Below are positions 42,493 through 59,846 of a stretch of DNA of 64,000 nt, one piece after another. The stretch is from Clostridia bacterium (GTDB taxonomy: Bacteria; Bacillota; Clostridia; UMGS1883). The number at the start of each line of letters is the position of its first letter. Position 1 is the first letter of the stretch. The notes beneath the pieces are model-generated. The model searched no databases, was not told the origin of the DNA, and saw only the letters and a program-made list of their open reading frames with translations. A program made the translations under genes and the position numbers. The stretch covers positions 183,079-247,078 of the forward strand of contig JAZQCM010000001.1 of the NCBI GenBank assembly GCA_045546275.1. The letters run 5' to 3'.

Positions 42493-42505
42493 TAGGAGGT
42501 TATGT

Positions 42506-42859
42506 ATGAATATATATGATCTTAATACAACCGGCGAAATAATTTCTTATGGCGTTGTTGTAACAATTCAGGGCATTATGGTTGTTTTCTTAATTCTCAT
42601 ACTAATAATGCTGACAATTTATGCTATGGGTCTTTTCTCCGGTGACAAGAAAGTGAAGAAAGAAGTTGTTACAGAAGCACCTGTTGCACCTTCTATGGTT
42701 GAAGATGCAGTTGACGAAGGCGAATTAATCGCTGTTCTCACAGCTGCTGTAGCTGCATGTTTGGGCACAAGCCAGTCAAGTGTTAATATTCGTAGCTACA
42801 AGAAGGTTTCTTCCGCTTGGGGCAATGCCGCAAAGCGTGAAGTTCTTGAAAAATTTTAA
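42506..42859 (+). CDS. Na+-transporting decarboxylase small membrane subunit (OadG/MmdD-like)
   Basis: N-terminal TM helix followed by an Ala/Pro-rich linker. RBS GGAGG before the ATG at 42506. Confidence 0.55.
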
Positions 42860-42873
42860 GGAGGTATATTGTA

Positions 42874-43227
42874 ATGAGAAAATTTATTATAAACGTTAAT
42901 GGTAATTCTTACGAAGTAGAAGTTGAAGAAGTAGGCGGTGCTTCCGCTCCTTCCGTTGCTCCCGTAGCACAGGTTGCTGCAGCAGCTCCCAAAAAAGCAG
43001 CTGCTCCCACAGGCAGCGGTGAACCCGTAAAGGCTCCCATGCCCGGTACAGTTCTTGACGTTAAGGTTAGTAATGGTGCAAAGGTTAATGAAGGCGACGT
43101 ACTTGTTGTTTTAGAAGCTATGAAGATGGAAAACGACATCAAGGCTCCCAAGGCAGGTACAGTTACTGTTATAACTTCAAAGGGCTCCAGCGTTAATACA
43201 GGTGATGTTTTAGTTACAATTGCGTAA
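42874..43227 (+). CDS. Biotin carboxyl carrier protein (biotinyl-lysine in EAMKMEN)
   Basis: C-terminal biotinyl domain with an AMKM motif; Ala/Pro-rich linker. Confidence 0.85.
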
Positions 43228-43269
43228 TTAAAGCTTAAAAAATTAACGCAGATTGGAGTGTGAATACAA

Positions 43270-44532
43270 ATGTTTGAAATGTTAGTTGACGGTTTGAGTA
43301 GCTTTGCTATAAAAACCGGCGTTGCTCAGATAGCAATGGACTTTACTGCAGGCGGTTGGAAAACACTCGTTATGATTGTTATTGCATGTGTGCTTTTGTA
43401 TCTTGCAATAGTTAAAAAGTTTGAACCGCTTTTACTTTTACCAATTGCATTTGGTATGCTACTTGCAAACCTGCCTTTAGGCGGGGTTATGCATCCCGAA
43501 TATTTCATAAACCCCGAGTATCTGATTGATGGCGAAAAGCTTAATTTCAGTCTGATACTTAATAAGGGTGGTCTTTTGGACCTTTTGTACTTAGGTGTTA
43601 AGCTTGGTATTTATCCTCCGCTTATTTTCTTAGGTATCGGTTGTATGACCGACTTTGGTCCTCTTATTTCTAACCCAAAGAGCATTCTTTTGGGTGCAGC
43701 AGCACAGCTTGGTGTATTTATCACATTCTTCTGTGCAGTGCTTCTTGGCGCATTCGGCCTTTTCGGTTTTGGTGCCGACGGAAATGTTGCAACAATCTTT
43801 AAGGAAGCAGCTTCCATTGGTATTATCGGTGGTGCCGACGGTCCTACAGCAATTTTCGTTACAAAAACGCTTGCTCCCGGACTTCTTAGTGCCATCGCCA
43901 TTGCGGCATACAGCTACATGGCACTTATTCCTCTTATTCAGCCTCCTATTATGAGGCTTTTCACAACAAAGAAGGAACGACAGATTGTTATGGAACAGCT
44001 TCGTCCCGTAACTCAGAAGGAAAAAATTATTTTCCCCATTGCCGTTGCTCTTATTGTAATTTTGCTTGTTCCCGATTCTGCAAGTTTGGTTGGTACACTT
44101 ATGCTTGGTAACCTTATTAAGGAATCAGGCGTCGCTGAACGACTTTGCAAAACAGCGCAGAACGAACTTATGAACATTATTACGATTTTCCTTGGTATCA
44201 CAGTTGGCGCTACTGCAACAGCAGACACATTCCTCACACCAAAGACAGTTCTTATCATTGTTCTTGGTCTTGCTGCTTTCTCCGTTTCTACAATGGGTGG
44301 TTTACTACTTGCAAAGCTTATGTGTAAGCTTACAGGAGGCAAGATCAATCCTCTTATCGGTTCTGCAGGTGTTAGTGCTGTGCCTATGGCAGCAAGAATG
44401 AGCCAGCAGGTTGGACAGGAAGAAAATCCTGCAAACTTCCTTCTCATGCACGCTATGGGTCCCAACGTTGCAGGTGTTATCGGTAGTGCGGTTGCAGCCG
44501 GTGTATTCCTTGCAAACTTTACAGGTATTTAA
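43270..44532 (+). CDS. Na+-transporting decarboxylase beta subunit (OadB/MmdB/GcdB family)
   Basis: 420 aa polytopic membrane protein with conserved beta-subunit blocks. Confidence 0.85.
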   Translation: MFEMLVDGLSSFAIKTGVAQIAMDFTAGGWKTLVMIVIACVLLYLAIVKKFEPLLLLPIAFGMLLANLPLGGVMHPEYFINPEYLIDGEKLNFSLILNKGGLLDLLYLGVKLGIYPPLIFLGIGCMTDFGPLISNPKSILLGAAAQLGVFITFFCAVLLGAFGLFGFGADGNVATIFKEAASIGIIGGADGPTAIFVTKTLAPGLLSAIAIAAYSYMALIPLIQPPIMRLFTTKKERQIVMEQLRPVTQKEKIIFPIAVALIVILLVPDSASLVGTLMLGNLIKESGVAERLCKTAQNELMNIITIFLGITVGATATADTFLTPKTVLIIVLGLAAFSVSTMGGLLLAKLMCKLTGGKINPLIGSAGVSAVPMAARMSQQVGQEENPANFLLMHAMGPNVAGVIGSAVAAGVFLANFTGI

Positions 44533-44550
44533 TTAGGAGGTAAATGAAAC

Positions 44551-45942
44551 ATGGTAAAAATTACAGAAACAGTCCTCCGTGATGCTCATCAGTCACTTAT
44601 TGCTACAAGAATGACAACAGAGCAGATCTTGGGCATTGTTGAAAAGCTTGATAAAGTTGGTTATCATTCTCTTGAGGCGTGGGGTGGAGCAACATTCGAT
44701 TCCTGCCTTCGTTTCCTCAACGAAGACCCCTGGGAAAGACTTCGTAAAATAAAGGATAAGGCAAAGAATACTCCTTTACAGATGCTTTTCCGTGGTCAGA
44801 ACATTTTAGGCTACCGTCATTATGCAGACGACGTTGTTGAATATTTTGTTCAGAAGTCTATTGCTAACGGTATTGATATTTTAAGAATTTTCGATGCGTT
44901 GAACGACGTAAGAAACTTTGAAACAGCTATTAAGGCAACTATTAAAGAAAAGGGTCACGTACAGGCAGCTATCAGCTACACTTTAAGTGACTTCCATACA
45001 AACGAATCCTTTATTAAGCTTGCAAAGCAGCTTGAAGATATGGGTGCAAACAGTATCTGTATCAAGGATATGGCAGGTCTTTTAACTCCTTACGTTGCAT
45101 ACGACCTTGTGTCCGGCATGAAAAAGGCTGTTAAAATTCCGATTCAACTTCACACTCACTACACAAGTGGTGTTGCAAGCATGACATATCTTAAAGCAAT
45201 TGAAGCAGGAATTGACGTTGTTGACTGTGCTATGAGCCCCATGGCACTTGGTACAAGCCAGCCTCCTACAGAATCTTTGGTTGCTACATTAAAGGGAACA
45301 GAGTACGATACAGGTTATGACTTGAACCTTCTTTCCGAAATTGCGGATTATTTCCGTCCTCTTCGTGAAGAATACCTTAAGAGTGGTCTTTTGGACCCCA
45401 AAGCATTAAGTGTTGATGCAAATACTCTTAAGTACCAGGTCCCCGGTGGTATGCTTTCAAACCTCATTTCTCAGCTTAAGCAGCAGGGCAAAGAGGACAA
45501 GTACGAAGAGGTTTTGAACGAAGTTCCAAGAGTTCGTGCCGATGCAGGTTATCCTCCTCTTGTAACTCCCACAAGCCAGATTGTTGGTACACAGGCAGTT
45601 CTTAATGTTATTACAGGTGAACGTTACAAGATGACAACAAAGGAATTCCGTGCAATGGTTCGTGGCGAATATGGTCAGACCCCTGCTCCCATTTCTGATG
45701 AATTCAGAAAAATGATTATTGGCGATGAAGAAGTTATTCACTGCAGACCTGCAGATCAGATTCCCAATGAATTGGACAAATTCAGAAGCGAAATTGCCGA
45801 ATATATTGAACAGGACGAAGACGTGCTTTCATACGCACTCTTTGACCAGGTAGCAACAAAGTTCTTTAAGTACCGTCAGGGTGCTAAGTACAAGATTGAC
45901 CCCAATCTTGCAAATACTGAAGAAAAAACTCATCCCATATAA
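44551..45942 (+). CDS. Oxaloacetate decarboxylase alpha / pyruvate carboxyltransferase (5S-type, HMGL-like TIM barrel) without a biotinyl domain
   Basis: N-terminal ITETVLRDAHQSL, HTHYTSG metal site, 463 aa. The C-terminal BCCP domain is absent (it is supplied in trans by 42874-43227). Confidence 0.8.
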   Translation: MVKITETVLRDAHQSLIATRMTTEQILGIVEKLDKVGYHSLEAWGGATFDSCLRFLNEDPWERLRKIKDKAKNTPLQMLFRGQNILGYRHYADDVVEYFVQKSIANGIDILRIFDALNDVRNFETAIKATIKEKGHVQAAISYTLSDFHTNESFIKLAKQLEDMGANSICIKDMAGLLTPYVAYDLVSGMKKAVKIPIQLHTHYTSGVASMTYLKAIEAGIDVVDCAMSPMALGTSQPPTESLVATLKGTEYDTGYDLNLLSEIADYFRPLREEYLKSGLLDPKALSVDANTLKYQVPGGMLSNLISQLKQQGKEDKYEEVLNEVPRVRADAGYPPLVTPTSQIVGTQAVLNVITGERYKMTTKEFRAMVRGEYGQTPAPISDEFRKMIIGDEEVIHCRPADQIPNELDKFRSEIAEYIEQDEDVLSYALFDQVATKFFKYRQGAKYKIDPNLANTEEKTHPI

Positions 45943-47351: not shown

Positions 47352-48335
47352 ATGAACGTTAATAACGAATACCGCGATATTCCGGCGTTTGCACGGCGTT
47401 TTCTTGTGCATATGTCAACTATTCTCGGCAAATCTGATAAAACTGTACACGAATACTATTATGACCTTCGAACATTTTTCAGATTTTTAATGTGTTATTT
47501 TAACAAAGCTTCCTTTGATGATTTTGATACACTTAATGCTTCTGATTTTTCTATTAAAGACCTGGATAAATTAGTTACAGATGATTTGTATGAATACCTT
47601 ATGTTTATCAGAAATACACGTGATAATAATCCAAATGCTTTAGCACGTAAAATTTCTTGTCTTAAATCGTTTTATAATTATATGACTACAAAATCACATC
47701 AGCTTGATAATAATATTGCTAAAGATCTCGAATCTCCCAAAATTCCCAAAAAACTTCCCAGGTATCTTACATTAGACCAATCACGAAAACTTTTGGAATC
47801 TGTTGATGGCGAATTTGCAGTTCGTGACTATGCAATTATAACATTGTTTTTAAACTGTGGTATGCGTCTTAGTGAGCTTGTTGGTATAAATATGCATGAC
47901 ATGCAAGAAAATAGTATATTTATACGTGGCAAGGGCAACAAAGAACGAAAAGTTTATCTTAATGAGGCTTGTATTGCCGCAATTAATGATTATCTTGCAA
48001 TAAGGCCTCACGACGGGGTTATTGACCGTGACGCTCTGTTCTTAAGCAAAAGAAAAACTCGTATTTCTAACAATATGGTCTATAGAATGGTAAAAAAGAA
48101 CATGGAACGAGCAGGTTTAGACCCGGATAAATATTCACCGCATAAGCTCCGTCATACTGCCGCAACATTAATGTATGTGCATGGCGATGTTGATGTAAGA
48201 GCTCTGCAAGAAATACTCGGTCACGAACAGCTCTCTACCACTCAGATTTATACACACGTTGATGAAAAACAATTGCACGAAGCAGTAAGTCGCAATCCTT
48301 TGGCAAACACAAAAAAGCAAAAAAAAGACAGCTGA
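47352..48335 (+). CDS. Tyrosine site-specific recombinase, XerC/XerD family
   Basis: Catalytic R..HxxR..Y region LRHTAATLMYVHG...LGHEQLSTTQIYTHV. RBS GGAGG before the ATG at 47352. Confidence 0.8.
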   Translation: MNVNNEYRDIPAFARRFLVHMSTILGKSDKTVHEYYYDLRTFFRFLMCYFNKASFDDFDTLNASDFSIKDLDKLVTDDLYEYLMFIRNTRDNNPNALARKISCLKSFYNYMTTKSHQLDNNIAKDLESPKIPKKLPRYLTLDQSRKLLESVDGEFAVRDYAIITLFLNCGMRLSELVGINMHDMQENSIFIRGKGNKERKVYLNEACIAAINDYLAIRPHDGVIDRDALFLSKRKTRISNNMVYRMVKKNMERAGLDPDKYSPHKLRHTAATLMYVHGDVDVRALQEILGHEQLSTTQIYTHVDEKQLHEAVSRNPLANTKKQKKDS

Positions 48336-48349
48336 TGCTGTCTTTTTTT
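48323..48349. terminator. Bidirectional terminator between xerC-like and the ECF operon
   Basis: AAAAAAGACAGCTGATGCTGTCTTTTTTT. Confidence 0.8.
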
Positions 48350-49068
48350 CATTTGAAAACTCCGTATTTTTGCTTAATTCTCTTTAGTTTCTTTCCTATA
48401 GGTTTATTCATAATAATCATAAAAATTACGTTTGATATTACATAACTGAGCATAACGGGAACACTTGCCACAACAAGAGAAATATACCTTTGAAATGTAA
48501 ATAAAGAATCAAGATTAATTGTTGTGTAAATATCCATTACTAAAGAAAAAACCACACCTGCAATTGCTGAAAATGAATATAACAAAACCTTGTTCTTTTC
48601 AAGTAAACTCCTTTTGTTCAGAACACCTGCAATAAAACCAATCAGCCCCCACACAGCCATCTGGAAAATTGTCCATGGACCTTGACCGTATTGCATGTTT
48701 GAAAAAAGTGCGGTAAACGAGCCTGTAATAAATCCTGCATCACAGCCTAAATACATGCCTGTTATTATAACAAGTGCCGTTACAGGTTTAAAATGCGGAA
48801 CAAAAATGAAAATTATCCGAGAAGCTGTGCATAATGCAGTCATTACTGCTATTATGACAATTTCTCTTGAGCTTTGTTTACTTCGCTCAAATTTGCTGAA
48901 AAAAGGTATTAAAACTATTATTGCCGAAATCATTGCAACCAGCATGTATTTTTCATTGCCTAAAAATAAGCTCGAAGTAATTGAAAGAATTATTAAACAA
49001 AATATAGCAAAAATGCTTTTATACTTACTGATATGTACCATTCCTTTTACATAGAGTTGAAATATCAT
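48349..49068 (-). CDS. ECF transporter substrate-specific (S) component, predicted corrinoid-specific (CbrT-like) from operon context
   Basis: Small multi-TM protein that terminates the ECF T-A-S operon. The start is uncertain: candidates are 49068, 49041 and 48945, which give 239, 230 or 198 aa. Confidence 0.55.
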   Translation of the reverse strand: MIFQLYVKGMVHISKYKSIFAIFCLIILSITSSLFLGNEKYMLVAMISAIIVLIPFFSKFERSKQSSREIVIIAVMTALCTASRIIFIFVPHFKPVTALVIITGMYLGCDAGFITGSFTALFSNMQYGQGPWTIFQMAVWGLIGFIAGVLNKRSLLEKNKVLLYSFSAIAGVVFSLVMDIYTTINLDSLFTFQRYISLVVASVPVMLSYVISNVIFMIIMNKPIGKKLKRIKQKYGVFK

Positions 49069-50575
49069 CAATGGTTACTGTGTTTTCAAAAAATCCTTTT
49101 GAAACAATCGATGCAGTTGTTGTGTAAAACTTGTTTTTAGAGAAAACCTGGCGTGGTGTGCCTTCCGAAACGATTTGACCATCATACAAAAAAACACACC
49201 TGTCAGAAAATTCTGCGGAAAACTCCGCATCATGAGTAACTGCAATTATACACATTCCTTTTTCCTTCAACCGCTTTAACAGCTCCCCTACTTCCCTTTT
49301 CCCCTTTGCATCTATCCCCTTTGTTGGTTCATCAAGGCAAAGAATTTCAGGGTTTGTAAGCAGGATTTTTGCAAGAGCTGCCTTTTGTGCCTCTCCTCCG
49401 CTTAAATCAAAGGGATTTCTGTTTAATAGATGAGTAATTTTAAGCTCATCTGCAATTTCCATATAATCATTTGAAACAAGGCTTAAATCATCTTTCAATA
49501 CATCTTTTGTGAAAACTGTTTTGACATTCTGCGGCAAAAGCACTATTTTTGATGTATAATTATGCACTTTCCCCGAATATGGCTTCAAAATATTGTTTAT
49601 AACCCCCATAAAGGAAGTTTTTCCTGCACCATTTCCACCAAGAACAACAGCAATTTCGCCTTTATATGCAGTAAAATTCAATTTTTTCAACACATCGGAA
49701 TCGTTTTTGCCATAACGGAAATAAATATCCTTGGCTCGCAAGGCTTTTTCACCAAATTGAACGCTTTCTTCAATGGAGTTTATATCATTCTTGTAGTTTT
49801 TTCTCAAAAAGCTTCTGCAATCACTAACTGATGCAGGCACATCATTTAAGGATATACCCAGCGCCTTCAGCAACCTTACGGCAAAGGGATATTCAACAGC
49901 ATCGGTATCGAGATTATTAAATACTTCTAAACCTTTTCCTTGGGCAATCAACTTTCCATTTTCCATAACACAAATTTTTGTGGCAAAATTAATTAATTCT
50001 TCAGATTTATGCTCGGAAATGATAATTGTAATCCCCATTTCACTATTAAGCCTTTTTATCATATCAATAAAATTTCTTGCAGCAATTGGGTCAAGCTGAC
50101 TTACCGGTTCATCCAAAAGTAAAATATCCACATCGGATGCCATCACAGACGCAAGAGTTACAAGCTGCTTTTCACCACCTGAAAGTTGGGTGGTTTTTTT
50201 GTGAAAAAGGTGTGTAATGTCAAAAAACTCAGCAGTTTCGGCAACCTTTTGTCTTATTTCATACTTAGGTAACCCCTCGTTTTCAAGAGCGAAGGCAATA
50301 TTGTGCCAAACAGTATCGGAAACAATCTGTGTTTCCACATCCTGTGTTACAATACCGGTTTTTATGCCTCTTTTAATAACTATTTCTCCATTTTTTTCAC
50401 CAAAAGGAGAAATAGCTTCGTTCAAAAGTTTTATTAAAGTTGTTTTTCCGCTGCCGGAAGAGCCTGTTAACAAGATAAAATCTCCTTGATTAACGCTTAA
50501 AGAAAAGTTGTCTAACGCATAGCTTTCCTGCCCGGGATATTTAAAACTTAAATTTTCGATATTAAGTATTTCCAC
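49025..50575 (-). CDS. ECF transporter fused duplicated ATPase (EcfA1-EcfA2)
   Basis: Two ABC cassettes (GSSGSGKTT / GGNGAGKTS; LSGGEKQ / LSGGEAQ). GTG start with a strong AAGGAGGGG RBS. Confidence 0.85.
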   Translation of the reverse strand: MEILNIENLSFKYPGQESYALDNFSLSVNQGDFILLTGSSGSGKTTLIKLLNEAISPFGEKNGEIVIKRGIKTGIVTQDVETQIVSDTVWHNIAFALENEGLPKYEIRQKVAETAEFFDITHLFHKKTTQLSGGEKQLVTLASVMASDVDILLLDEPVSQLDPIAARNFIDMIKRLNSEMGITIIISEHKSEELINFATKICVMENGKLIAQGKGLEVFNNLDTDAVEYPFAVRLLKALGISLNDVPASVSDCRSFLRKNYKNDINSIEESVQFGEKALRAKDIYFRYGKNDSDVLKKLNFTAYKGEIAVVLGGNGAGKTSFMGVINNILKPYSGKVHNYTSKIVLLPQNVKTVFTKDVLKDDLSLVSNDYMEIADELKITHLLNRNPFDLSGGEAQKAALAKILLTNPEILCLDEPTKGIDAKGKREVGELLKRLKEKGMCIIAVTHDAEFSAEFSDRCVFLYDGQIVSEGTPRQVFSKNKFYTTTASIVSKGFFENTVTIDDISTLCKRNGTYQ

Positions 50576-51405
50576 TTTATCCCCTCCTTAAGCTCGTTCA
50601 GACAAGGCAAAAACGATAGAATTGCAACAGACAAATATAACAAATATCCATTATTCTCAAATTTAATTGACGGATAATAGAAAAATTTACCCTGAGAATT
50701 TAAAAGACAAACTATAATAATTGCATCTAAAGCACATACCAAATGAGAAAACAACACATCGTGCTTTGAGTATAAAACATCACTATAGTCGGAGTGCTTT
50801 GCGTTTTCAAAGCCACGGGACCGCATAACATCTGCGGTGTCTATGGCGTTTTCTATTGATAATGAAATCAGCGACGAAAAAGAATTTGTCGCAAGGTTAA
50901 GCTTTCCTTTAATAGTTTTTGTATCAAATACTCCTAAAGCTTTTTGTGTGTTCATTATAGTTTTAGCATTTTCGGTTACAAGTGGAATGAACCTTAATAT
51001 CATAATAAAAACAACGCTTAATTTAGGTGATAGTTTTCCAAGTATGTATGTGAGCTTGTCCTCGGTGAAAACATAGGAAAAAAGCTTAAACCAGAACACA
51101 ACGCCAACAATTAAAAGTGCTGTAGCAAAGCCATAAAAGAGCGCTTCAAAGGTTATACGTTGGTCAAACAAATAGAAAAGCACAGTTTCTCCGTTGTGAG
51201 AAAATATGGGATTAGACAAAGTTATAATGAAAAACAAGGGTAAATACAACTTAATTCCAAGCTTTTTTGTAAAAACCCCCACCGTTATAATACCTCCCAA
51301 AAACAAAACCAGAAGTACTACCGGATTCATTGTAATCAGCGATAAAATAACAATTGATGCAAAGAATATTAATAATGTGATCGGATGAAAATCCTTAAAT
51401 TGCAT
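50548..51405 (-). CDS. ECF transporter transmembrane (T) component EcfT
   Basis: 285 aa polytopic protein with an EcfT-like Arg-rich coupling region. Overlaps ecfA by 28 nt. Confidence 0.8.
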   Translation of the reverse strand: MQFKDFHPITLLIFFASIVILSLITMNPVVLLVLFLGGIITVGVFTKKLGIKLYLPLFFIITLSNPIFSHNGETVLFYLFDQRITFEALFYGFATALLIVGVVFWFKLFSYVFTEDKLTYILGKLSPKLSVVFIMILRFIPLVTENAKTIMNTQKALGVFDTKTIKGKLNLATNSFSSLISLSIENAIDTADVMRSRGFENAKHSDYSDVLYSKHDVLFSHLVCALDAIIIVCLLNSQGKFFYYPSIKFENNGYLLYLSVAILSFLPCLNELKEGIKWKYLISKI

Positions 51406-51407
51406 TA

Positions 51408-51893
51408 TTATCCCCCATTTTTGTAACTTTCACCAATATCTTTTCCCAAATTACAGGTGTACACCCATTCTATTACATCTCCATCATGAAGAACATATTC
51501 ACTGCAGCCTTTGGCAGCAAATTGCCCATTTACAGTGTACATCCAACCCGACAATTCTCCGCAGGAAAATTCATAAACATAATTAATTCCTTCAACATAG
51601 CAGTCATGAAGAGATTGTGTGTATTCAAGTTGTATATTATTCTCTTTTGCCACAGCTTTAAGAGCATCCAACACACTTGAGCCTTTAGATACATTAATTA
51701 TAGTTTTTTGCAAAATTGAACCATTTTCAGGTATGTATTCAGTGTTTTTAAGTGCTTCATCAAGCTTTAAATAGTTTTCAAAAACTGTAGCACAATTAAT
51801 AGATACCGATACACTGATAAGCTCCGCGTCCTTTTGATTACAACCAGAAATAATAACAATTAATACTAAAAATAATACTAATACTTTCCTCAT
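51408..51893 (-). CDS. DUF4430-domain lipoprotein (transcobalamin/intrinsic-factor beta-domain-like)
   Basis: Lipobox LIVIISGCN. C-terminal motif SGWMYTVNG...GDVIEWVY is shared with two other ORFs in the operon. Its ATG overlaps the upstream stop (ATGA). Confidence 0.6.
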   Translation of the reverse strand: MRKVLVLFLVLIVIISGCNQKDAELISVSVSINCATVFENYLKLDEALKNTEYIPENGSILQKTIINVSKGSSVLDALKAVAKENNIQLEYTQSLHDCYVEGINYVYEFSCGELSGWMYTVNGQFAAKGCSEYVLHDGDVIEWVYTCNLGKDIGESYKNGG

Positions 51894-53143
51894 ATTCGTC
51901 TCCTGATTATTATAACAGAAAATATTACAATTGCAACAAAAATCCCCGGAATTGTCCACATATTGAATAATGGTTTGTTGTTTGTTCCAACTTCGTTAAT
52001 CTCGGTCGTTGGTGCTTCTGTTGGTATGTTTTCTTCAATAGTTTCAACAATATTATCGGTAGTTGCTGAAACTTCAACTGTGGGCTCAACAGACAATTTG
52101 ACTTCTGTATATTCATTTATGGGCTCATTAAATAATTCAACTTCTGTCTGGGACACAGCAAAAAACTCGGTAGGTATTTCAATTTCCATCTGAACCGTTT
52201 CAAGCTTTAAAAAAGTCTCTTCCTCTGTTGCAGGCTCGGTTTCGCTTTCAACGTTTTTCGCCATAGCATTTGCTGAATACACAGGCCCGTTCTTATCAAT
52301 GGCCGACAACGCACAAACAGCTTGATATGTTGCCATTACGTCAGTTTCTCCACCTGCAACATGTGAAAACCCATCAGCTGTTTTAAATTGCAATAAGGCG
52401 TTGTGTAAATCTATAAATTCACCATAAAACCTATTTTGAAAAGCTTTCAAGGCAATTATAACCTGTGCTGTACTTTCGGCGTTAGGCACCCCTTTTTCCG
52501 AAAAAGTACCATCTTTGTTCTGAGTGCTTTGCAAGTAATTCATGGCACGCACAACTGTATTGTTGACATTAACATCATCCATATAAAAGGATAAAGCGTA
52601 AAGAACCATGGCTGTGATGTCACAGCTCGACTCATCATCAGAAAGAGAAAAGCCGCCATCTTCATTCTGTTTTGAAAGTATTTCCCTAAGAATTGCGTCC
52701 TCTGTATTAATACCATTTCTGACTTTTTCAAAATTGCCTGAATTTAATGCAATTAACGCCCATATGTAACCATTTAGACCTTGTTTTCCAAGGTTTTCTC
52801 TGAAATACACACCGTCATTTAAAAGATTAATCCCAAAGAAGTTTGTTGCATCGTAACCAAGAAGGTTTAGTGCAATTATTAAGCGGTGCCATTCGGTGGA
52901 TTTGTTTGCACTGAGCTTGCTTTTAGTTAAATACTTGCTTTGTACATATTCATTCAATCCTGTTATATATACGTCCTCATCAAAATCAACTCCCGAAACA
53001 GTCAGTGCAATTGCAGACCAATCTGAATGTGTACTTCCGGGCGAAGACATAAGAACATTTTCTAAAACAGATTCATTTCCCAAAACCACCGTAGAATTTG
53101 AAAGGATACTAAAAACCAATAAAACTATAGCAATCTTTTTCAT
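51890..53143 (-). CDS. Secreted, C-terminally TM-anchored prenyltransferase / squalene-cyclase-like alpha/alpha-toroid repeat protein
   Basis: Signal peptide; repeated motifs QNEDGGFS and QNKDGTF with aromatic spacing, typical of terpenoid-cyclase/prenyltransferase repeats. Glu/Thr-rich linker and a C-terminal TM with RRRI. Confidence 0.55.
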   Translation of the reverse strand: MKKIAIVLLVFSILSNSTVVLGNESVLENVLMSSPGSTHSDWSAIALTVSGVDFDEDVYITGLNEYVQSKYLTKSKLSANKSTEWHRLIIALNLLGYDATNFFGINLLNDGVYFRENLGKQGLNGYIWALIALNSGNFEKVRNGINTEDAILREILSKQNEDGGFSLSDDESSCDITAMVLYALSFYMDDVNVNNTVVRAMNYLQSTQNKDGTFSEKGVPNAESTAQVIIALKAFQNRFYGEFIDLHNALLQFKTADGFSHVAGGETDVMATYQAVCALSAIDKNGPVYSANAMAKNVESETEPATEEETFLKLETVQMEIEIPTEFFAVSQTEVELFNEPINEYTEVKLSVEPTVEVSATTDNIVETIEENIPTEAPTTEINEVGTNNKPLFNMWTIPGIFVAIVIFSVIIIRRRI

Positions 53144-53697
53144 AATAACAAATCTTCCCCATAATTAAGCGTAAATATAAGTTCAATTTTGTCCCCGGGT
53201 TTAGGAATATAATCACACATACCAACAGATGGCAATTCATCATTCACTGTGAATACCCATCCTGATGTATCCGTAAAGTCAAATTCCCCAAGGGTTCCTT
53301 CAATACTTACGCTGTCAGTATATTCAATATTGTTTTCAGATAAATATGCTTTTGCTTCATCGGAAATAAAGGCGTTGGAAGTGTCGATTTCTTCAACTGC
53401 TGAAAGATAAAACCATTCTTCTGTTGTCCCTGAATAAATGGGAACAAAACCGCTTTCTTCGAGAATACTTATAAAAATTTCAGCACAGTTTTGTCCAACA
53501 AAGACAACCTCTGTTAAAGGGACTATTTCTTCTATTGAAACATTCGGTGCTTCTACAGCACAGTAAATATAGTCTTCAATTGGTTCATCATAGTCGTTGA
53601 TATACTCACTGTCTGTAATTTCATACTGCTGAACAATACCTTCAGTAACGCTTGTTAAAGCAATTATGGCAGCGGTTAAAACAGTAAAAATCTTCAT
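53140..53697 (-). CDS. Secreted DUF4430-like protein
   Basis: Signal peptide. C-terminal SGWVFTVNDE...GDKIELIF matches the shared DUF4430-like motif. Confidence 0.5.
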   Translation of the reverse strand: MKIFTVLTAAIIALTSVTEGIVQQYEITDSEYINDYDEPIEDYIYCAVEAPNVSIEEIVPLTEVVFVGQNCAEIFISILEESGFVPIYSGTTEEWFYLSAVEEIDTSNAFISDEAKAYLSENNIEYTDSVSIEGTLGEFDFTDTSGWVFTVNDELPSVGMCDYIPKPGDKIELIFTLNYGEDLLL

Positions 53698-55854
53698 TTA
53701 CTTCACCTCCGTAATCGGAACAAGGCCCTCGTTCCAGACAAACACTTTAATGTTGCCATCCATACCTGAAATGTCCACATTTTCAACATAACAGCCATTA
53801 TCCTTTTCTATTTTCCTTACAATCGTATCTGTTACCATGGAATCATTATAATTAGCAATTATTACATATGCATCACATTTAAGATTTGCATTGATTTTCA
53901 CAAAAACTTCAGATTGTTCAACAGAAATACCTGCTACATTAATTTCCAGCCATGGTGCAATTAAGGGGGAGCCACCCTCCCTTTCCGATGCTGAAATTAC
54001 ATATTTTCCCGGCATATCAAAAGATAATGTAACAACTCCCTGATCATCAGTAGTCTCGATTGTTTCCATTTCACCCGTTTTGGGGTCAACAACAGTAATA
54101 TCCGCATTTGAAATATTCATCATCATATTCTCAAGCTTCGAATCTTCGTAACAGCTGTACCAACCAAAAGGATAACCCTTAAGAGTAAGTGTAAATTCTT
54201 CGCTTTTATTAACATCTATATTTTCACAAGCTTTACCCTGATTTTCAAAATGAACATAGTTGTCTAATGCCCAGTCGTCACGGTAAAAGAAAAACTCAAC
54301 CTTGTCCCCTTCTTTAACAGGAGATTGATTTAAAGAATAACCCGTATAGCCGTAATCAGTCAAAACATCGTCGTGAGGAGCCTTGCCGTTTACAGCAAAG
54401 CCAAAGTTATATGTATCAATACAAAGAACTCTTGATAAATAGCCCTCTTGAGAAACAGAAAGATAATCATTACAGGTTTCTTGCGTAAAATCTTCACCGA
54501 ATGTATCTTCATGAATTTTTACAAGCACGTCAAGAGCAGATGCAGAATCTGTTACAGTGTCTGTATAACCATAGCTTTCAGCCTTATCGGCAAACACTTT
54601 CACATCAGTTAAAGGAACAATAAATCCATCCTCAATTAAAGCAGTACGGACTTTTGTTCTGCTGTCTTTTAACGCAAAAAGATACCCTGAGTCATTTTTG
54701 TAATATAAAGTACCATTTTCATCAGCAATTATGTCTGAAATACAATATTGTGAGTATCCGTCAGCATTATAAATTTCATCGACTATACAATCGTCAACAC
54801 TATCAGCATCAGGTTTGATTTTAATAAGTATAATGCCACCCGGTGTTGAGTTGTATGTGGTGTAAAGATAAATATATCCTTCATCAGCAATGTGAGTTGT
54901 CGATAACAGCACAGTGCATTGGGGATATGCTTTTACAGGAACTGAAAAAAGTTTTGTAAGGCTGTTTGCATCAAACACAGAAATTGTTTTGTTTGCCGTT
55001 CCTATATAAATTCTTCCATTGTAAATTACAGGCGTAGATGTGGATGCTGCGCCAATTTCACCGTATTTAACATCGGACAGTATATTTTTGTCTAATTTAG
55101 CTGAAACAAGGTAACCACCTTTTGTTGTAGCGTAAATTCTGCCTTCGTAATATGTAACAGTTGAACGGATGTCACCTTTGTTTTCAACATCAATGCTGCT
55201 TATAATTTCACCGCTTGTTTTATCGCAGGAATAAATATGAGCAATTTTATCTGTGCCATCATCCGTTGCAAAAATAACAGAATCGTCGGTAGTGTATGCA
55301 CCAACCCAGTACAAGCCGCCATCTATATTTTTACGCCATTTAACCTCTCCTGTTTCACTGTCTAATGCAACAAATGCCGCTTCTTTCTTTTCCCCGTTCC
55401 AGAATCCGGTAAACACCAAGTTTTCGGAGTATGTAACAGGCGACATTCCTTTTCCTCCCGAAATATCTTCAAACACCCATTCTGATTCAAATGTTTCAGC
55501 ATTAAAAGCCTGAACTGTTCCATTTGACAAATTCATGAAAATTTTACCATTAGCAAAAGTCGGTGCAACATAGCCATAGCTTTGCTGCTCTGCCATTGAA
55601 ATTTTTGTAATTATACTTCCGTCTTCAACATTAACTGCAAAAAGCTCGTCACCTGACATGATAACAATTTTATCTTCAACAATCACAGGTACTCCGGCAG
55701 GTTTTTGCCAGCCTTCGCCAATTTTTGTTGCCCATTTAAGGGTTAAGGTGTCGCCGGTGTCAGTATCTGTAACCGTACCAAAAACTGTTATACTGCTTGT
55801 AATAACCAGTATAAAAACCAAAATTACTGTAAAAAAATTTGAGTATGCCTTCAT
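53698..55854 (-). CDS. Secreted PQQ-like beta-propeller repeat protein with an embedded DUF4430-like module and a C-terminal beta-rich region
   Basis: Signal peptide. Recurrent propeller-blade patterns (LFAVNVEDGS, FVALDSETGEVKW, IYATTKGGYL, IYIGTANKTISVFDANS). A mid-region module ..GYSLNQSPVKEGDKVEFFFY.. is DUF4430-like. RBS GGAGG. Confidence 0.55.
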   Translation of the reverse strand: MKAYSNFFTVILVFILVITSSITVFGTVTDTDTGDTLTLKWATKIGEGWQKPAGVPVIVEDKIVIMSGDELFAVNVEDGSIITKISMAEQQSYGYVAPTFANGKIFMNLSNGTVQAFNAETFESEWVFEDISGGKGMSPVTYSENLVFTGFWNGEKKEAAFVALDSETGEVKWRKNIDGGLYWVGAYTTDDSVIFATDDGTDKIAHIYSCDKTSGEIISSIDVENKGDIRSTVTYYEGRIYATTKGGYLVSAKLDKNILSDVKYGEIGAASTSTPVIYNGRIYIGTANKTISVFDANSLTKLFSVPVKAYPQCTVLLSTTHIADEGYIYLYTTYNSTPGGIILIKIKPDADSVDDCIVDEIYNADGYSQYCISDIIADENGTLYYKNDSGYLFALKDSRTKVRTALIEDGFIVPLTDVKVFADKAESYGYTDTVTDSASALDVLVKIHEDTFGEDFTQETCNDYLSVSQEGYLSRVLCIDTYNFGFAVNGKAPHDDVLTDYGYTGYSLNQSPVKEGDKVEFFFYRDDWALDNYVHFENQGKACENIDVNKSEEFTLTLKGYPFGWYSCYEDSKLENMMMNISNADITVVDPKTGEMETIETTDDQGVVTLSFDMPGKYVISASEREGGSPLIAPWLEINVAGISVEQSEVFVKINANLKCDAYVIIANYNDSMVTDTIVRKIEKDNGCYVENVDISGMDGNIKVFVWNEGLVPITEVK

Positions 55855-55964
55855 TCTAATAACCTCCGTTTGTTTTTTTACAGAATAATGGCATACTCAA
55901 ACAAGGCTTCTTACGAAACCTTAAAAGCGTACAATCCAGTATCCTGTGGATTTATAGTACAAAG

Positions 55965-56122
55965 AAGTGGCAGGTCTTCCGACTCAGTTTCAACGCTTTC
56001 CTCGTCTTCCCGGTTACCCAGTGACATTTTAAGAAAAGCTCCGCATCACGGCAGCAAGGTCTGTCTGGGATTTTCACCCAGTTCCCTATTATGCGTATCT
56101 GCAAAATGCAATACGCCACCTA
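55965..56122 (-). ncRNA. Cobalamin (AdoCbl/B12) riboswitch
   Basis: The minus-strand RNA reads ..AGGUGGC..AAUAGGGAACUGGGUGAAAAUCCCAG..GCUGCCGUGAUG..GUCACUGGG..GGGAAGACG..AGUCGGAAGACCUGCC (B12 box). A ~110-nt expression platform precedes the first ORF, and the segment GCCUUGUUUG can pair with the SD region CAAACGGAGG. Confidence 0.85.
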
Positions 56123-56146
56123 CATCTTTATATTATTCAATTTTAA

Positions 56147-56593
56147 TTATTCAAAACTCATCTGCGAAAAATCACATATGTAAATCCAGCTTATTAAATC
56201 TCCTTCGGAAACAGTATAATCTGTCATAATAGCTTCGTTATTGACTTCATATACCCATCCGCTCATTTCACCGCAGGATTTTTCATAAATGTAATTAATT
56301 CCCTTAGCGTAGCCCGAATCTGCATCAATCTGAATGTCATATTCTTTAGCTACTTTCTTTAAAACATCAAGGGCGCTGTCGCCTTCATTAGCCTCAACTT
56401 CAACAGTTTTAAGTATAAGACCATCTTTGGGCACATACTTTTCATCACGAAGGCTTTCGTCAAGCATTTCGTAATTTGAAAGAATGTCGCTACAGTCAAT
56501 CTCAACTTTAACGTTTACCACATCTTTCTTTGCACAGCCTGCAGTTACAAGCAATACTAAAATGAGTAAAAGTGTTTTGATTAAACTTTTCAT
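56147..56593 (-). CDS. DUF4430-domain lipoprotein (fourth paralogue)
   Basis: Lipobox LVTAGCAK. Motif CGEMSGWVYEVNNE...GDLISWIY. Confidence 0.6.
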   Translation of the reverse strand: MKSLIKTLLLILVLLVTAGCAKKDVVNVKVEIDCSDILSNYEMLDESLRDEKYVPKDGLILKTVEVEANEGDSALDVLKKVAKEYDIQIDADSGYAKGINYIYEKSCGEMSGWVYEVNNEAIMTDYTVSEGDLISWIYICDFSQMSFE

Positions 56594-57423
56594 TAATCAA
56601 TTTCACCTCGTCTACGTAACAAATAATAATTCAGCTCACCACCTACCAGCAAGAATACAATGCAAAAATAAATCCAAAGCATCATGATGATAAGCGCTGT
56701 AAGACTACCATAAAGATATGACTTGTTTGAAAAATTGTCAATATAAATTGAAAATAAATATGAAAAAATTATCCAACCTGATGAAGACAACACCGCTCCG
56801 GGGATTTGTTTTACAAAGCGAAGCTTACGTCCTGTTGCAAATGTATAGATACAGGTAAACACAAAGGACAATACAAGCATTGAAATCAAAAGCTTTGCCG
56901 AAAGTACTTTGCTTACAATGATAATTGCTATCGGAAAAAATTTATTTATAATTTCTCCTGCAACATTTCCGAAAACCATTAAAATCAATGATACCAGTAT
57001 TGCAATCACAACCATTATTGTGAAAAACACACCTTGCAAATTAAGCTTGATAAAATTCCTCTTTTCCTTAACTTTGTAAACACAGTCAAGCCCCTTTTCC
57101 AACGCAACTACGCTTCGGGAGGCTGTCCACAACAGCATGAGTGCAGGTACAGAAATTACCGACACCGAATCTGCGGCAAGAACTTCCGAAATTATATAAT
57201 GCACAAAGCTAAGTACACTTTTGGGGACGTTTCTTCCGAATAAATTAATTATTTCATCGGCAGTAAAGGTTATAAACCTACCTGTCAACATCAGAATTAA
57301 AATCAGAAACGGAACCGCAGAAATCACAATATAGAAGGAAGCATACGCGCTATACACGGTTATATTATCATCACCTGCTGTTTTAAATATTGATTTAGAA
57401 ACATTATACAGCTTCTTTATCAT
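56593..57423 (-). CDS. YihY/BrkB family inner-membrane protein
   Basis: 276 aa polytopic protein with a YihY-like N-terminal block. Confidence 0.7.
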   Translation of the reverse strand: MIKKLYNVSKSIFKTAGDDNITVYSAYASFYIVISAVPFLILILMLTGRFITFTADEIINLFGRNVPKSVLSFVHYIISEVLAADSVSVISVPALMLLWTASRSVVALEKGLDCVYKVKEKRNFIKLNLQGVFFTIMVVIAILVSLILMVFGNVAGEIINKFFPIAIIIVSKVLSAKLLISMLVLSFVFTCIYTFATGRKLRFVKQIPGAVLSSSGWIIFSYLFSIYIDNFSNKSYLYGSLTALIIMMLWIYFCIVFLLVGGELNYYLLRRRGEID

Positions 57424-57434
57424 ATTATCATTCC

Positions 57435-59846
57435 TTATTTTTGAATGAAATAATACCAGTTGCCTCTAATTGCAGTAAGCTCTTTGTTCTTTGCGATTTT
57501 TTCAGGCGCATAAACAATTCCAAATTCTTTTCCTTCATCGGTTTTTCCAAACACAAATGAAACTGTATCCTCCGCATTTGGATTGTATTTTACAGAAAAT
57601 GCAACAAACTGTTCGGACAACTCGCCTATAAGTTCTATAGCATTGTCGGAAAGCTTAATGAAGCTACCCAACTTATAATCGCGGATTTCAAGACCATTAC
57701 CAACTTTGTTGATATAAGCACCATTATTGCAGTTTTTGTTGAGATATGTTACCACCGCCGAAAGTATGCTTTCGTGAGACAGTAAGAAATCCCCTGCTGT
57801 TTTTTCAGAAAAATCACCGGTGAAGCCATTTTCAGGGCGAGAAATCGAGTCAAAGTCAATATCATCGCTTTCCACAATATCATTGTGCTTAATTTCAGCG
57901 TCAGGACTGTACATCCATTTAATTGTTTTAATAACAAGCGCTGCAGCTTCTGCAACAGTTATGCTGTCGGTAGGATTAAGATACCCGTTAAAGCCCGCAA
58001 TAATACCTGTTGAGCACATTGTGTCAACATAGTCTTTTGCCCAGAAAGAAACATTATCACTATCCTTAAAGCTGATAGAAACATCGCCCTTTTCAGCATT
58101 TGAAATTCTTGCAAGAATGATTATAGCCTCTTCTCTGCTTATAAGGTCCTCGGCATGAACCTGACCTTTTTCATCGCCTGTCATGTAGCCTATTTGCTGG
58201 GCAGTAATACAGTCTTCATAAAAATCACTATTTTCATCCAAATCAGAAAATTTAGACTTCCCCGAAACGGAAAAACCTAACAATCTGTTAATTAATGCTG
58301 CAAAATCGCCTCGCGAAATGTGGCTGTCAGCTTCAATTGGCTTTCCTGAAGGAGATTGTCCAAAGGAATTGACCGTGTCACAGAACATTTTACCCCAGTA
58401 AGAATCGTCATAGCCTGCAATAAATTCGCCGTAATTTACAAGCTTAAGCTCAGTTTTTTCACTTTTAAGTAAAACTTCGCCATCTGTATCAATTGCAAAA
58501 AACTCAATTGAAGGCTTTTCACATGATAAAAGTTCTTCTGTAATATCAATAGTTGCTGAAAACTCAAACTGAGCAGTACCCGCTTTATTCTCACGAACAA
58601 GATTAGCCGTTGTATTATCTTCAAAAACAACTTCGCCATCTTTATCTGACACAACCATTCTGATTTCTGTAACCATATTATTAAATTCGTATGTAGCACC
58701 AGAAAGGGATGCTTTGTAATTTACAGGAGAATACACGCCATAAAATGTTCCACTATCCCCCACGGTAAGATTTACGCCATCAGAAAGATTAAAATCAATA
58801 AAGCGAACCTCGCCATCTTTATTTGTGTTTTCAACACGAGAAAGAGCAATAAATTGATTATATTTGCTTTCAACAACTTTCCCTTTCTTTTCAAGGTTAG
58901 CATCCGCAAATCTAAAAGGAACAGCTTCTTCACCTATGTCATAATACAAATAATTAACCTTGTTAGGGACACTCTTACTGAAAATGCTTCCAAGCTTTAC
59001 ATTATCAGAAGCTCTTGAAGTATCAAGATAGTTAAGGAGTATGTAAACATCCTTATCCCCCGAAAGTTCAACCTTTATGTTATCTGCAAACCTCTGATTA
59101 ACAGAGTATGAAAAGTCCTTTGTAACATTATTTAAAAAGCTCGAAGGATTCCAGTAGCCTACAATAGAATTGGGTAAAACAAGGTCGTTTTCTTTGGTAT
59201 ATTCAGCCAAATTAACGTTGTCTGTTGCAATCAGACGTTTATTGTTGTTTCCAATGTTAATAGTTTTAACAGTTTTAAAAACCTCTTCACCATACAAATC
59301 AAGGGCAGTTACTATAAGCTCATATTCACCACTTATTAAATCTGGAAGAGATTTTTCGTATTTATCAACCAAATTAAGGTCAAAATCCTTTGTGGCACCG
59401 CCAAAAATAATTGCCGCAAAATAGTCTTCTTTAACAACAATTTTGTTATAAGCTAAACGAATTGAATCACGGTCATTGCCGTCATACAAAATATCGGGGG
59501 GCGTTAATGTGTTTAACAAAACATTCTTTGCATCGTTTACTGCAGTGCCATTTTCATAGTCCAAAAGAAAATATGAGCCCGGTGTTACACCATCAGGTCC
59601 TACATTACTTTCAAGAAGCCTCACAGCCTCTCCCATTGAGTTGTTGAGTCTTATTCTTAGGTTTAAAGGCTGCTCCTTTGCGGTTGCTCCATTTCGATCA
59701 ATTTTTCCGATTACGTAAAAATCTCTCAACGGCATAATTTCAGTTTCTGTTGGTGCAACAACTGTAACTTCCGCAGCACTCGCACTGATGAAAAGCAACG
59801 AAAGAACTATAATTGACACCGTAAACAATAAAAGAACTTTTTTCAT
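57435..59846 (-). CDS. Large secreted S-layer-homology (3x SLH) domain protein with a ~470-aa N-terminal region of unknown function
   Basis: Signal peptide. Three ~55-aa SLH repeats in the C-terminal half (..ISRGDFAALINRLLGF.., ..ISREEAIIILARI.., ..ITVAEAAALVIKT..). Confidence 0.7.
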   Translation of the reverse strand: MKKVLLLFTVSIIVLSLLFISASAAEVTVVAPTETEIMPLRDFYVIGKIDRNGATAKEQPLNLRIRLNNSMGEAVRLLESNVGPDGVTPGSYFLLDYENGTAVNDAKNVLLNTLTPPDILYDGNDRDSIRLAYNKIVVKEDYFAAIIFGGATKDFDLNLVDKYEKSLPDLISGEYELIVTALDLYGEEVFKTVKTINIGNNNKRLIATDNVNLAEYTKENDLVLPNSIVGYWNPSSFLNNVTKDFSYSVNQRFADNIKVELSGDKDVYILLNYLDTSRASDNVKLGSIFSKSVPNKVNYLYYDIGEEAVPFRFADANLEKKGKVVESKYNQFIALSRVENTNKDGEVRFIDFNLSDGVNLTVGDSGTFYGVYSPVNYKASLSGATYEFNNMVTEIRMVVSDKDGEVVFEDNTTANLVRENKAGTAQFEFSATIDITEELLSCEKPSIEFFAIDTDGEVLLKSEKTELKLVNYGEFIAGYDDSYWGKMFCDTVNSFGQSPSGKPIEADSHISRGDFAALINRLLGFSVSGKSKFSDLDENSDFYEDCITAQQIGYMTGDEKGQVHAEDLISREEAIIILARISNAEKGDVSISFKDSDNVSFWAKDYVDTMCSTGIIAGFNGYLNPTDSITVAEAAALVIKTIKWMYSPDAEIKHNDIVESDDIDFDSISRPENGFTGDFSEKTAGDFLLSHESILSAVVTYLNKNCNNGAYINKVGNGLEIRDYKLGSFIKLSDNAIELIGELSEQFVAFSVKYNPNAEDTVSFVFGKTDEGKEFGIVYAPEKIAKNKELTAIRGNWYYFIQK

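Follow-up and report, generated by a model that had tools for sequence, protein, structure and literature searches.

A cobalamin-riboswitch-linked family of propeller proteins with transcobalamin-like modules, a candidate for extracellular B12 capture in Clostridia

How Gram-positive gut bacteria capture cobamides outside the cell is the question raised by a gene for a 718-amino-acid protein in a 64,000-nucleotide stretch of a Clostridia bacterium genome (GenBank assembly GCA_045546275.1, contig JAZQCM010000001.1, positions 183,079 to 247,078 of the forward strand), referred to here as the window. The Firmicutes are co-dominant in the gut and rivals for one and the same pool of cobamides. Extracellular cobamide capture by Bacteroides is well understood, with BtuG, BtuH, BtuJ and BtuK as its proteins, and a 2026 review states that any extracellular capture role of BtuH and BtuJ homologues in Gram-positive Firmicutes "remains entirely uncharacterized" (PMC13616437). 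The protein encoded in the window carries a beta-propeller, and strong comparative evidence suggests that this propeller belongs to a B12-scavenging apparatus coupled to the energy-coupling factor (ECF) transporter ECF-CbrT, because the whole family is linked to cobalamin riboswitches, to modules of the SLBB (beta-grasp) type and to ECF genes. The family is thus probably part of extracellular B12 capture by Gram-positive gut bacteria.

The 718-codon open reading frame (ORF) begins with ATG on the minus strand at the place where it had been claimed, and the gene is regarded as real because 23 full-length orthologues with 45-66% identity, collected by a word-index search, keep the operon. The original prediction had also placed it first after a B12 riboswitch, which was confirmed by a full-length aptamer ending 97 nucleotides before the ATG.
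53698 to 55854, minus strand: gene of the propeller-SLBB-Ig-Ig protein, 718 amino acids, ATG start (ORF list and orthologues).
55855 to 55951, minus strand: leader and expression platform, with the 8-bp hairpin AAGGUUUC-GUAA-GAAGCCUU and a GGAGG ribosome-binding site before the ATG.
55952 to 56139, minus strand: cobalamin riboswitch aptamer RF00174 (Rfam, 100.7 bits, E 5.4e-24, full model 1-189).
The tail of the leader hairpin is poor in U, folding of the expression platform scored a z of -1.8, and a terminator scan of the leader found none. Transcriptional and translational control by the riboswitch are both left standing, and the label "most strongly regulated" for the 718-amino-acid gene is conjecture.

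The linkage of the propeller to B12 was followed across one genome per species, with 80 loci kept from the 299 relatives found. A riboswitch lies upstream of the propeller gene and on the same strand in 58 of these 80 species-level loci, and in 13 of the 22 riboswitch-negative loci the upstream sequence is shorter than 2.5 kb and therefore too short to judge. The last round of an iterated nhmmer search with the aptamers gave 79 matches over 87 loci, all but one (78/79) on the strand of the gene. Rfam confirmed seven of the 12 weakest nhmmer calls, leaving five nhmmer-only, and found 2 further riboswitches, one of the adenosylcobalamin (AdoCbl)-II type, among 11 nhmmer-negative loci. SLBB modules were present in 72 of the 80 loci, ECF genes in 54 and an alpha/alpha-toroid gene in 25. 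In 36 of the 80 no other gene stands between riboswitch and propeller gene, in 21 the propeller gene follows a DUF4430 gene, and in five loci propeller, DUF4430 and toroid are joined in one polypeptide. Four loci of differing architecture, including a monocistronic gene of the P0063 class described below and a DUF4430/MacB-FtsX operon, all have an upstream cobalamin riboswitch.

Several loci of the survey showed peculiarities of their own. Aptamer-like sequences upstream of the propeller operons in L020, L023, L027, L038 and L055 (nhmmer E 1e-9 to 1e-14, below the Rfam gathering score) may be divergent cobalamin riboswitches or other conserved leaders. Two or three cobalamin riboswitches, in tandem or before successive genes of the cluster, occur in L015, L026, L052, L054, L063, L075, L081 and L086, and L074 carries an AdoCbl-II variant in place of the classic type. 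In one branch, that of L006 (556-7925), the propeller gene is the last in a riboswitch operon with an ABC system of the MacB/FtsX type, not ECF; the same operon encodes a 956-amino-acid DUF4430 protein whose dockerin domain hints that it could be attached to a scaffold of the cellulosome kind.

The protein itself can be divided into a signal peptide and four domains, all encoded on the minus strand.
55777 to 55854, minus strand: putative signal peptide, residues ~1-26, no lipobox (hydrophobic helix at residues 2-18; AXA-type sites in orthologues).
54661 to 55767, minus strand: eight-bladed beta-propeller of the BamB/PQQ_2 type, residues 30-398 (PF13360, AlphaFold2, Foldseek, profile search of the PDB).
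54262 to 54660, minus strand: divergent DUF4430 or transcobalamin-like SLBB (predicted beta-grasp) module, residues 399-531 (hhalign; no Pfam match).
53971 to 54261, minus strand: Ig-like or transthyretin-like beta-sandwich 1, residues 532-628 (CarboxypepD_reg, E 0.0037).
53701 to 53970, minus strand: beta-sandwich 2, residues 629-718, specific to close orthologues (model and family domain hidden Markov models, HMMs).
The N-terminal hydrophobic helix and the AXA-type cleavage motifs of the orthologues agree with the claim that the protein is secreted, and it is from these features that we infer its export. Neither LPXTG, SLH, lipobox nor a C-terminal membrane segment was found when the 718-amino-acid protein was searched for an anchor. 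The protein is strongly acidic (isoelectric point, pI, 4.3; net charge -54), to which little weight was given. The beta-rich C-terminal part that had been predicted was modelled as two beta-sandwich domains with a predicted local distance difference test (pLDDT) score of 90; the first has the weak CarboxypepD_reg match and, in most relatives, is found next to the SLBB variant on its C-terminal side. The C-terminal 322 residues, modelled separately with high confidence, gave only generic tandem Ig/FN3/complement matches in a Foldseek search of the PDB (template modelling score, TM, ~0.2), a result which is uninformative on the SLBB fold.

Is the propeller of the PQQ type, as had been claimed, and does it resemble BtuG? 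Pfam matched PF13360 (PQQ_2) far above its gathering score (64.2 bits vs a cut-off of 27.6, E 1.8e-17), and PF01011 (PQQ) remained below its own (19.4 vs 26.7 bits) in a single stretch of ~40 residues. An AlphaFold2 model, built from the alignment of the 23 orthologues and without the initiator methionine, so that its numbering is that of the protein minus 1, reached a mean pLDDT of 87. The 30 strands found by DSSP were assigned to eight four-stranded blades (residues ~37-397), with ring closure by an N-terminal "velcro" strand in which residues 37-44 serve as strand D of blade 8. The best Foldseek matches in the PDB were to eight-bladed BamB (E 1.6e-19, target TM 0.77-0.80), followed by YxaL (E 4e-16) and then tetrathionate hydrolase, and a search of the PDB with the propeller profile matched only BamB, quinoproteins and designed "Cake" propellers. 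Pfam match, blade count and the fold match to BamB and YxaL thus uphold the PQQ-type propeller. The repeat type also differs from that of BtuG, as stated before: BtuG has seven blades, the window protein eight of the BamB/PQQ_2 type. No BtuG or BtuK chain was matched by the propeller profile in the PDB at E<=1, and none of the top 50 Foldseek matches of the window model in the PDB was BtuG.

For a map of conservation, 184 non-identical propeller domains were aligned and placed onto the blades. At least 90% conservation was found for 27 of the 111 positions in the D-A and B-C loops, which form one face, for 8 of the 67 in the opposite loops and for 24 of the 183 strand positions; the contrast between the two faces is marginal (Fisher p = 0.052). 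The conserved polar and aromatic residues of the first face are W152, Y182, D198, D228, R230, K245, T272, T274, Y310, Q312, Y334, N335, N387, D388 and S389, and the opposite face has few conserved residues, mostly turn glycines. Of the 184 domains, 180 have Cys371, the cysteine of a QYC motif at the entrance to blade 8. Its only candidate disulphide partner, C313, occurs in 110 of them, and 71 of the 184 keep Cys371 without C313. A C313-C371 disulphide as the sole reason for the conservation of Cys371 is ruled out by these 71 domains.

The module that follows the propeller is called from profile-profile evidence alone, because Pfam and NCBIfam scans were empty: no DUF4430 (PF14478) match was obtained in the 718-amino-acid protein, neither with the threshold relaxed to E<=10 nor with the C-terminal half scanned by itself, and PF14478 matched none of 15 versions of the module from across the propeller family, compared one by one (0/15). 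An hhalign comparison of residues ~404-522 from the 23 orthologues with nine bona fide DUF4430 proteins of this and related operons gave 96% probability (E 4e-9), and a broader alignment 95% (E 3e-8); none of twenty controls with shuffled columns exceeded 10%, and a reversed one gave 0.1%. The segment GYSLNQSPVKEGDKVEFFFY aligns to the C-terminal "Y..GD.I.W.Y" strand of DUF4430. Judged from these alignments, the module is a distinct, divergent DUF4430 subfamily with the invariant motifs AExYG, LD...H, FT, P, G and D and two insertions (AExYGYTDTV and PHDDVLTxYGYTGY). The internal DUF4430-like module of the original prediction is therefore supported at the level of profiles, whereas Pfam, the kind of domain search that had been proposed for it, is blind to it. 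Sequence-profile searches of the PDB detected nothing significant for the variant, with no transcobalamin (TC), intrinsic factor (IF) or haptocorrin (HC), and no meaningful match for a canonical DUF4430 neighbour.

The word-index search also brought up hundreds of larger proteins that share just the propeller half with the window protein. HMMs built for each of its domains were used to score domain co-occurrence in these relatives. Propeller, SLBB variant and first Ig-like domain occur together in most of the larger relatives, usually in the order SLBB-Ig-...-propeller; the order propeller-SLBB-Ig is that of the window protein and of the P0063 class, and the SLBB slot is sometimes taken by a canonical DUF4430. 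Proteins of the P0063 class (~760 amino acids), first read as "propeller-only", contain the same SLBB variant (hhalign 90.8%, E 1.2e-6) and, after the propeller, a weakly supported Ig-like domain (57%, E 1e-4) and then a membrane anchor. An exhaustive HMM search delimited a propeller family of 1,228 clusters at 50% identity (E<=1e-30) with lengths of 447 to 3,530 amino acids. In a set of 140 representatives, propeller and SLBB share one polypeptide in at least 62, and 50 have a C-terminal hydrophobic anchor. All propeller motifs of the family (GFW, GGxYW, TDDG, GDxRS, TKGG, STSTP, YPQ, TYNxxPGG, QYC and YYKNDSG) are found in the window protein, as are the SLBB-variant motifs AExYG, LD..H and FT and, in the same polypeptide, the Ig-like domain. 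The propeller is the most conserved part: its identity stays at 40-47%, and dozens of its residues hardly vary, among Oscillospiraceae, Lachnospiraceae, Christensenellaceae, Eubacteriaceae and Syntrophaceticus. The nearest relatives come from metagenome-assembled genomes (MAGs) of uncultured Oscillospiraceae and Clostridia from animal guts. Record titles name mostly Clostridia-class Bacillota (Oscillospiraceae, Lachnospiraceae, Christensenellaceae, Eubacterium barkeri, E. aggregans, Syntrophaceticus schinkii, Intestinibacter and Hominisplanchenecus), and a few MAG records are labelled Bacteroides, Bacteroidaceae or "bacterium".

Downstream of the propeller gene, the operon encodes further extracellular proteins and an ECF-type importer.
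53140 to 53697, minus strand: DUF4430 protein, 185 amino acids, secreted (PF14478, E 3e-10).
51890 to 53143, minus strand: alpha/alpha-toroid (prenyltransferase-like) protein, 417 amino acids, with signal peptide and C-terminal membrane anchor (PF00432, E 6e-10).
51408 to 51959, minus strand: DUF4430 lipoprotein with the lipobox IISGC (PF14478, E 1.8e-19).
50548 to 51405, minus strand: EcfT, CbiQ family (PF02361, E 1.9e-11).
49025 to 50575, minus strand: fused EcfA-EcfA' ATPase with two ABC_tran domains (PF00005, E 3e-47, two stretches matched).
48349 to 49071, minus strand: CbrT-like ECF S component, 240 amino acids (chain A of 6FNP, E 3.6e-10; PF07155).
48318 to 48351, minus strand: intrinsic terminator at the end of the operon, a 15-bp stem followed by a T-run.
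56147 to 56593, minus strand, upstream of the riboswitch: DUF4430 lipoprotein, 148 amino acids, with the lipobox VTAGC (PF14478, E 3.9e-09).
With its CbrT-like S component, EcfT, two EcfA domains, riboswitch and terminator after the S gene, the operon has the composition of an ECF-CbrT-type importer. The entry 6FNP is the structure of the vitamin B12 transporter ECF-CbrT (PMC5997447), and the window operon has the S component match, EcfT and double ATPase in common with this system of Lactobacillus delbrueckii. Toroid and DUF4430 proteins are encoded by separate genes in the window, as a "split transcobalamin" in which the toroid protein is a candidate counterpart of the transcobalamin alpha-domain. 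The correspondence of toroid and DUF4430 to the two halves of transcobalamin was noted by Burroughs et al. 2007 (PMC1796856) and, for Lsa1839/1840 of L. sakei, in bioRxiv 10.1101/864751.

The neighbourhood offered a number of further observations. The ORF at 51408-51959 begins at GTG, but a typical lipoprotein signal (MRKVLVLFLVLIVIISGC) opens with an ATG 22 codons farther on, at residue 23. This internal ATG is probably the true start, and most of the apparent overlap with the toroid gene is thereby removed. In other species toroid and DUF4430 are fused (L009), or propeller, DUF4430 and toroid are (L075, L076, L079, L083 and L087). The gene of the 148-amino-acid lipoprotein, the fourth SLBB protein, overlaps a BrkB-family gene at the stop codon of the latter. 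It directly precedes the riboswitch, is thus outside its control and appears to be expressed independently of B12. The equivalent gene in L008 has its own second cobalamin riboswitch (4853-5054), so the control of this paralogue differs among close relatives. Genes for the BrkB/YihY-family membrane protein (56593-57423, minus strand) and for an SLH-domain surface protein of ~800 amino acids (57435-59846, minus strand) precede the operon, and this synteny is found in every close orthologue locus (L001, L002, L008-L013). The SLH protein might serve as wall anchor for B12-capture proteins that otherwise have none. Farther away on the plus strand, genes for a carboxyltransferase, a membrane protein resembling decarboxylase beta subunits and an HMGL-like/PYC_OADA alpha subunit (40999-45942) together resemble those of a sodium pump of the methylmalonyl-CoA or oxaloacetate decarboxylase type; if such a pump acted on methylmalonyl-CoA, B12-dependent mutase chemistry would also be needed, which would fit a need for B12 uptake. 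A 1,840-amino-acid protein with CBM96, N- and C-terminal heparinase II/III and laminin-G-like domains (17804-23326, plus strand) is probably a large extracellular polysaccharide lyase, unrelated to the propeller.

What, then, might the 718-amino-acid protein contribute to B12 uptake? With moderate confidence we propose that it is a riboswitch-repressed, secreted accessory of the ECF-CbrT system which takes part in corrinoid capture and hand-off, with SLBB on the ligand and the propeller face as a second surface. The riboswitch would turn the gene off in a B12-replete cell. When B12 is scarce, the protein would be exported alongside the other SLBB proteins and the membrane-anchored toroid, help to capture cobamides outside the cell and hand them on to the S component of CbrT type. 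The SLBB module, which resembles the transcobalamin beta-domain, would touch the corrinoid, and the conserved propeller face would either complete the ligand pocket, on the model of the transcobalamin alpha-domain or of the BtuG propeller face, or receive the ligand and hand it off. Ligand binding by any of the domains and the direction of hand-off are what we infer. The four SLBB modules and the alpha/alpha-toroid look like a split transcobalamin, and any of them could be the corrinoid binder.

Transcobalamin provides a precedent for such a clasp, since it sandwiches B12 between a beta-grasp domain and a second domain (PMC1796856). The SLBB module is homologous, via DUF4430, to the C-terminal domain of mammalian transcobalamin, intrinsic factor and haptocorrin, a toroid is encoded in the operon, and the shared logic would be that two domains clasp one corrinoid. 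Unlike in transcobalamin, the alpha-like and beta-like parts are separate genes, and a propeller stands where transcobalamin has its toroid. The window protein also resembles BtuG and BtuK in being an acidic propeller protein of a B12 transport locus controlled by a cobalamin riboswitch, and its fusion of propeller and SLBB is comparable to BtuGH, in which the propeller is fused to a second B12-binding domain. BtuG and BtuK are, however, outer-membrane lipoproteins, both with seven blades, and with BtuG capping the TonB-dependent transporter BtuB, whereas the window protein lacks a lipobox and has ECF genes as neighbours in a Gram-positive, spore-forming Clostridia-type genome. Pfam annotation of the riboswitch operon and the genes around it, which did not extend to smaller ORFs elsewhere in the window, revealed no TonB-dependent transporter. 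Binding of B12 is proven for BtuG, and the window protein, known here from sequence and model, may work like it. Of the original prediction of a primary corrinoid receptor or a convergent analogue of BtuG, membership in the B12 apparatus, which is almost certain, and the status of an analogue that is not a homologue stand, the latter by the eight blades and the empty search for BtuG and BtuK; a BtuG-like corrinoid binding by the propeller and the rank of "primary" receptor are hypotheses.

A bolder version, which we consider possible but rather unlikely, holds the eight-bladed propeller itself to be a new class of high-affinity corrinoid-binding domain and an independent Gram-positive counterpart of BtuG. 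The ligand would lie on the conserved face near the central channel, Cys371 would be an axial cobalt ligand, which could allow decyanation or base-off capture, and together with SLBB the protein would be a secreted or surface "cobalophore" feeding ECF-CbrT. BtuG and BtuK bind B12 on one propeller face through contacts of Ser, Asn, Gln, Glu and Tyr (PMC13616437), and a cysteine is the axial cobalt ligand in BtuM (PMC6072759). These parallels to the window propeller are analogies, not tests.

Several observations weigh against a role of the propeller in corrinoid capture and hand-off. SLBB and propeller are ~400 residues apart, with other domains between, in many relatives, which speaks against an obligatory intramolecular sandwich, and no propeller would be needed for a complete transcobalamin-like binder if it were formed by the separate toroid and DUF4430 proteins, as it could be. 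BamB, the nearest fold in the model comparison, is a protein-protein scaffold, and corrinoid binding is predicted only, by analogy. The enrichment of conserved residues on one face is, at p = 0.052, marginal, and the mature protein has no recognisable anchor, so that it may be either released or retained. Neither Pfam nor the PDB profile search ties the SLBB module directly to transcobalamin, so that this link runs via DUF4430 only.

The BamB fold leads to the most serious rival, namely that the propeller is a protein-protein platform without corrinoid, whose face docks the S component, EcfT loops, the toroid or the DUF4430 lipoproteins and so keeps the SLBB and toroid binders over the transporter; just SLBB and toroid modules would then touch B12. 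Structurally the propeller is matched best by BamB chains within BAM complexes, BamB is also what the propeller profile matches in the PDB, and in many loci the propeller gene lies immediately upstream of ecfT. The mature protein is anchorless while the toroid is membrane-anchored and two DUF4430 proteins are lipoproteins, and the operon encodes a full split transcobalamin-like pair besides the propeller. The genes of the P0063 class, however, are monocistronic and riboswitch-preceded, and within +/-8 kb of them neither ECF nor toroid genes occur, so a docking partner would need to be encoded elsewhere, and the propeller is also fused to binders that are already self-anchored and is thus not needed merely to keep binders in place. 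The face itself is rich in small polar and aromatic residues with an often unpaired cysteine, which resembles the B12 contacts of BtuG although it is not diagnostic. Fold and repeat type are shared with BamB and YxaL (Foldseek E 1e-19 to 1e-15, PF13360) at just 16-18% identity; BamB serves the outer-membrane BAM machine as a periplasmic lipoprotein scaffold, YxaL is secreted by Bacillus and has no known link to B12, and the family-specific face motifs belong to the clade of the window protein. We consider a pure docking function unlikely, yet of real weight.

Retention at the cell surface was the role that Burroughs et al. 2007 had in mind (PMC1796856): the propeller would bind peptidoglycan or a surface polysaccharide and hold the B12-binding SLBB there, in the manner of the Ig, FIVAR and fasciclin domains to which other SLBB proteins are fused. 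The absence of LPXTG, SLH, lipobox and C-terminal membrane segment from the window protein and the conserved SLH-domain protein gene just upstream in all close orthologues would suit this role, which nevertheless appears improbable, as family members have dedicated anchors besides the propeller (SLH, choline-binding repeats, C-terminal hydrophobic segments in 50/140) and as the most conserved domain across families is not expected to recognise variable wall polymers. Import of another tetrapyrrole, or an extracellular enzyme which for example releases or remodels corrinoids from carrier proteins or incomplete cobamides, is in our judgement very improbable. The L. sakei operon Lsa1836-1840, with the same layout of ECF, alpha-like and beta-like genes, was experimentally tied to haem uptake (bioRxiv 10.1101/864751), eight-bladed PQQ-type propellers include tetrathionate hydrolase and quinoprotein dehydrogenases, and the near-invariant Cys371 could be catalytic. 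Against this, cobalamin riboswitches precede the propeller family in most species, the S component matches CbrT, a demonstrated B12 transporter subunit, the PF01011 score is below its cut-off, and no known catalytic motif was found in the propeller protein.

Parts of the apparatus were foreseen long before. Burroughs, Balaji, Iyer and Aravind described in 2007 a fusion of a beta-propeller with a transcobalamin-like SLBB in Clostridium (gi 28210494) and CbiO/CbiQ operons with paralogous SLBB proteins, predicted B12 scavenging and suggested a function as cell-surface tethers for accessory domains, the propeller among them (PMC1796856). The window protein is a member of the SLBB surface-protein class predicted there, which is uncharacterised experimentally: it is a secreted or surface multidomain protein with a predicted beta-grasp like the transcobalamin C-terminal domain, SLBB paralogues, CbiO/CbiQ-like genes and a toroid partner. 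It differs in that its SLBB belongs to a divergent subfamily missed by PF14478. The 2007 account mentions the propeller in one clause, as a tether; riboswitch linkage, family size, the permuted propeller/SLBB/Ig unit, the conserved face and the cysteine are absent from it. A literature search, whose coverage of subscription journals is thin, found no paper characterising the propeller family. ECF-CbrT, for its part, has reportedly been characterised as a four-subunit membrane transporter, and we know of no extracellular accessory protein from that work. Unlike it, the window operon adds five extracellular proteins.

The propeller family is a concrete and testable candidate for the capture apparatus of Gram-positive bacteria, as it is large, under riboswitch control in most species sampled and physically linked to ECF-CbrT as well as to transcobalamin-like modules. 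Should its propeller bind corrinoids, B12 capture by propellers would have arisen once more independently and the list of B12-binding folds would grow by one; acting as a "cobalophore", the protein could put gut Clostridia in competition with Bacteroides over cobamides. A scaffold function, in turn, would show in what arrangement the parts of a split transcobalamin-like binder are kept above an ECF transporter. In both cases the result matters for the competition over cobamides in gut and rumen communities and for the idea that the B12 carriers of animals are of bacterial origin.

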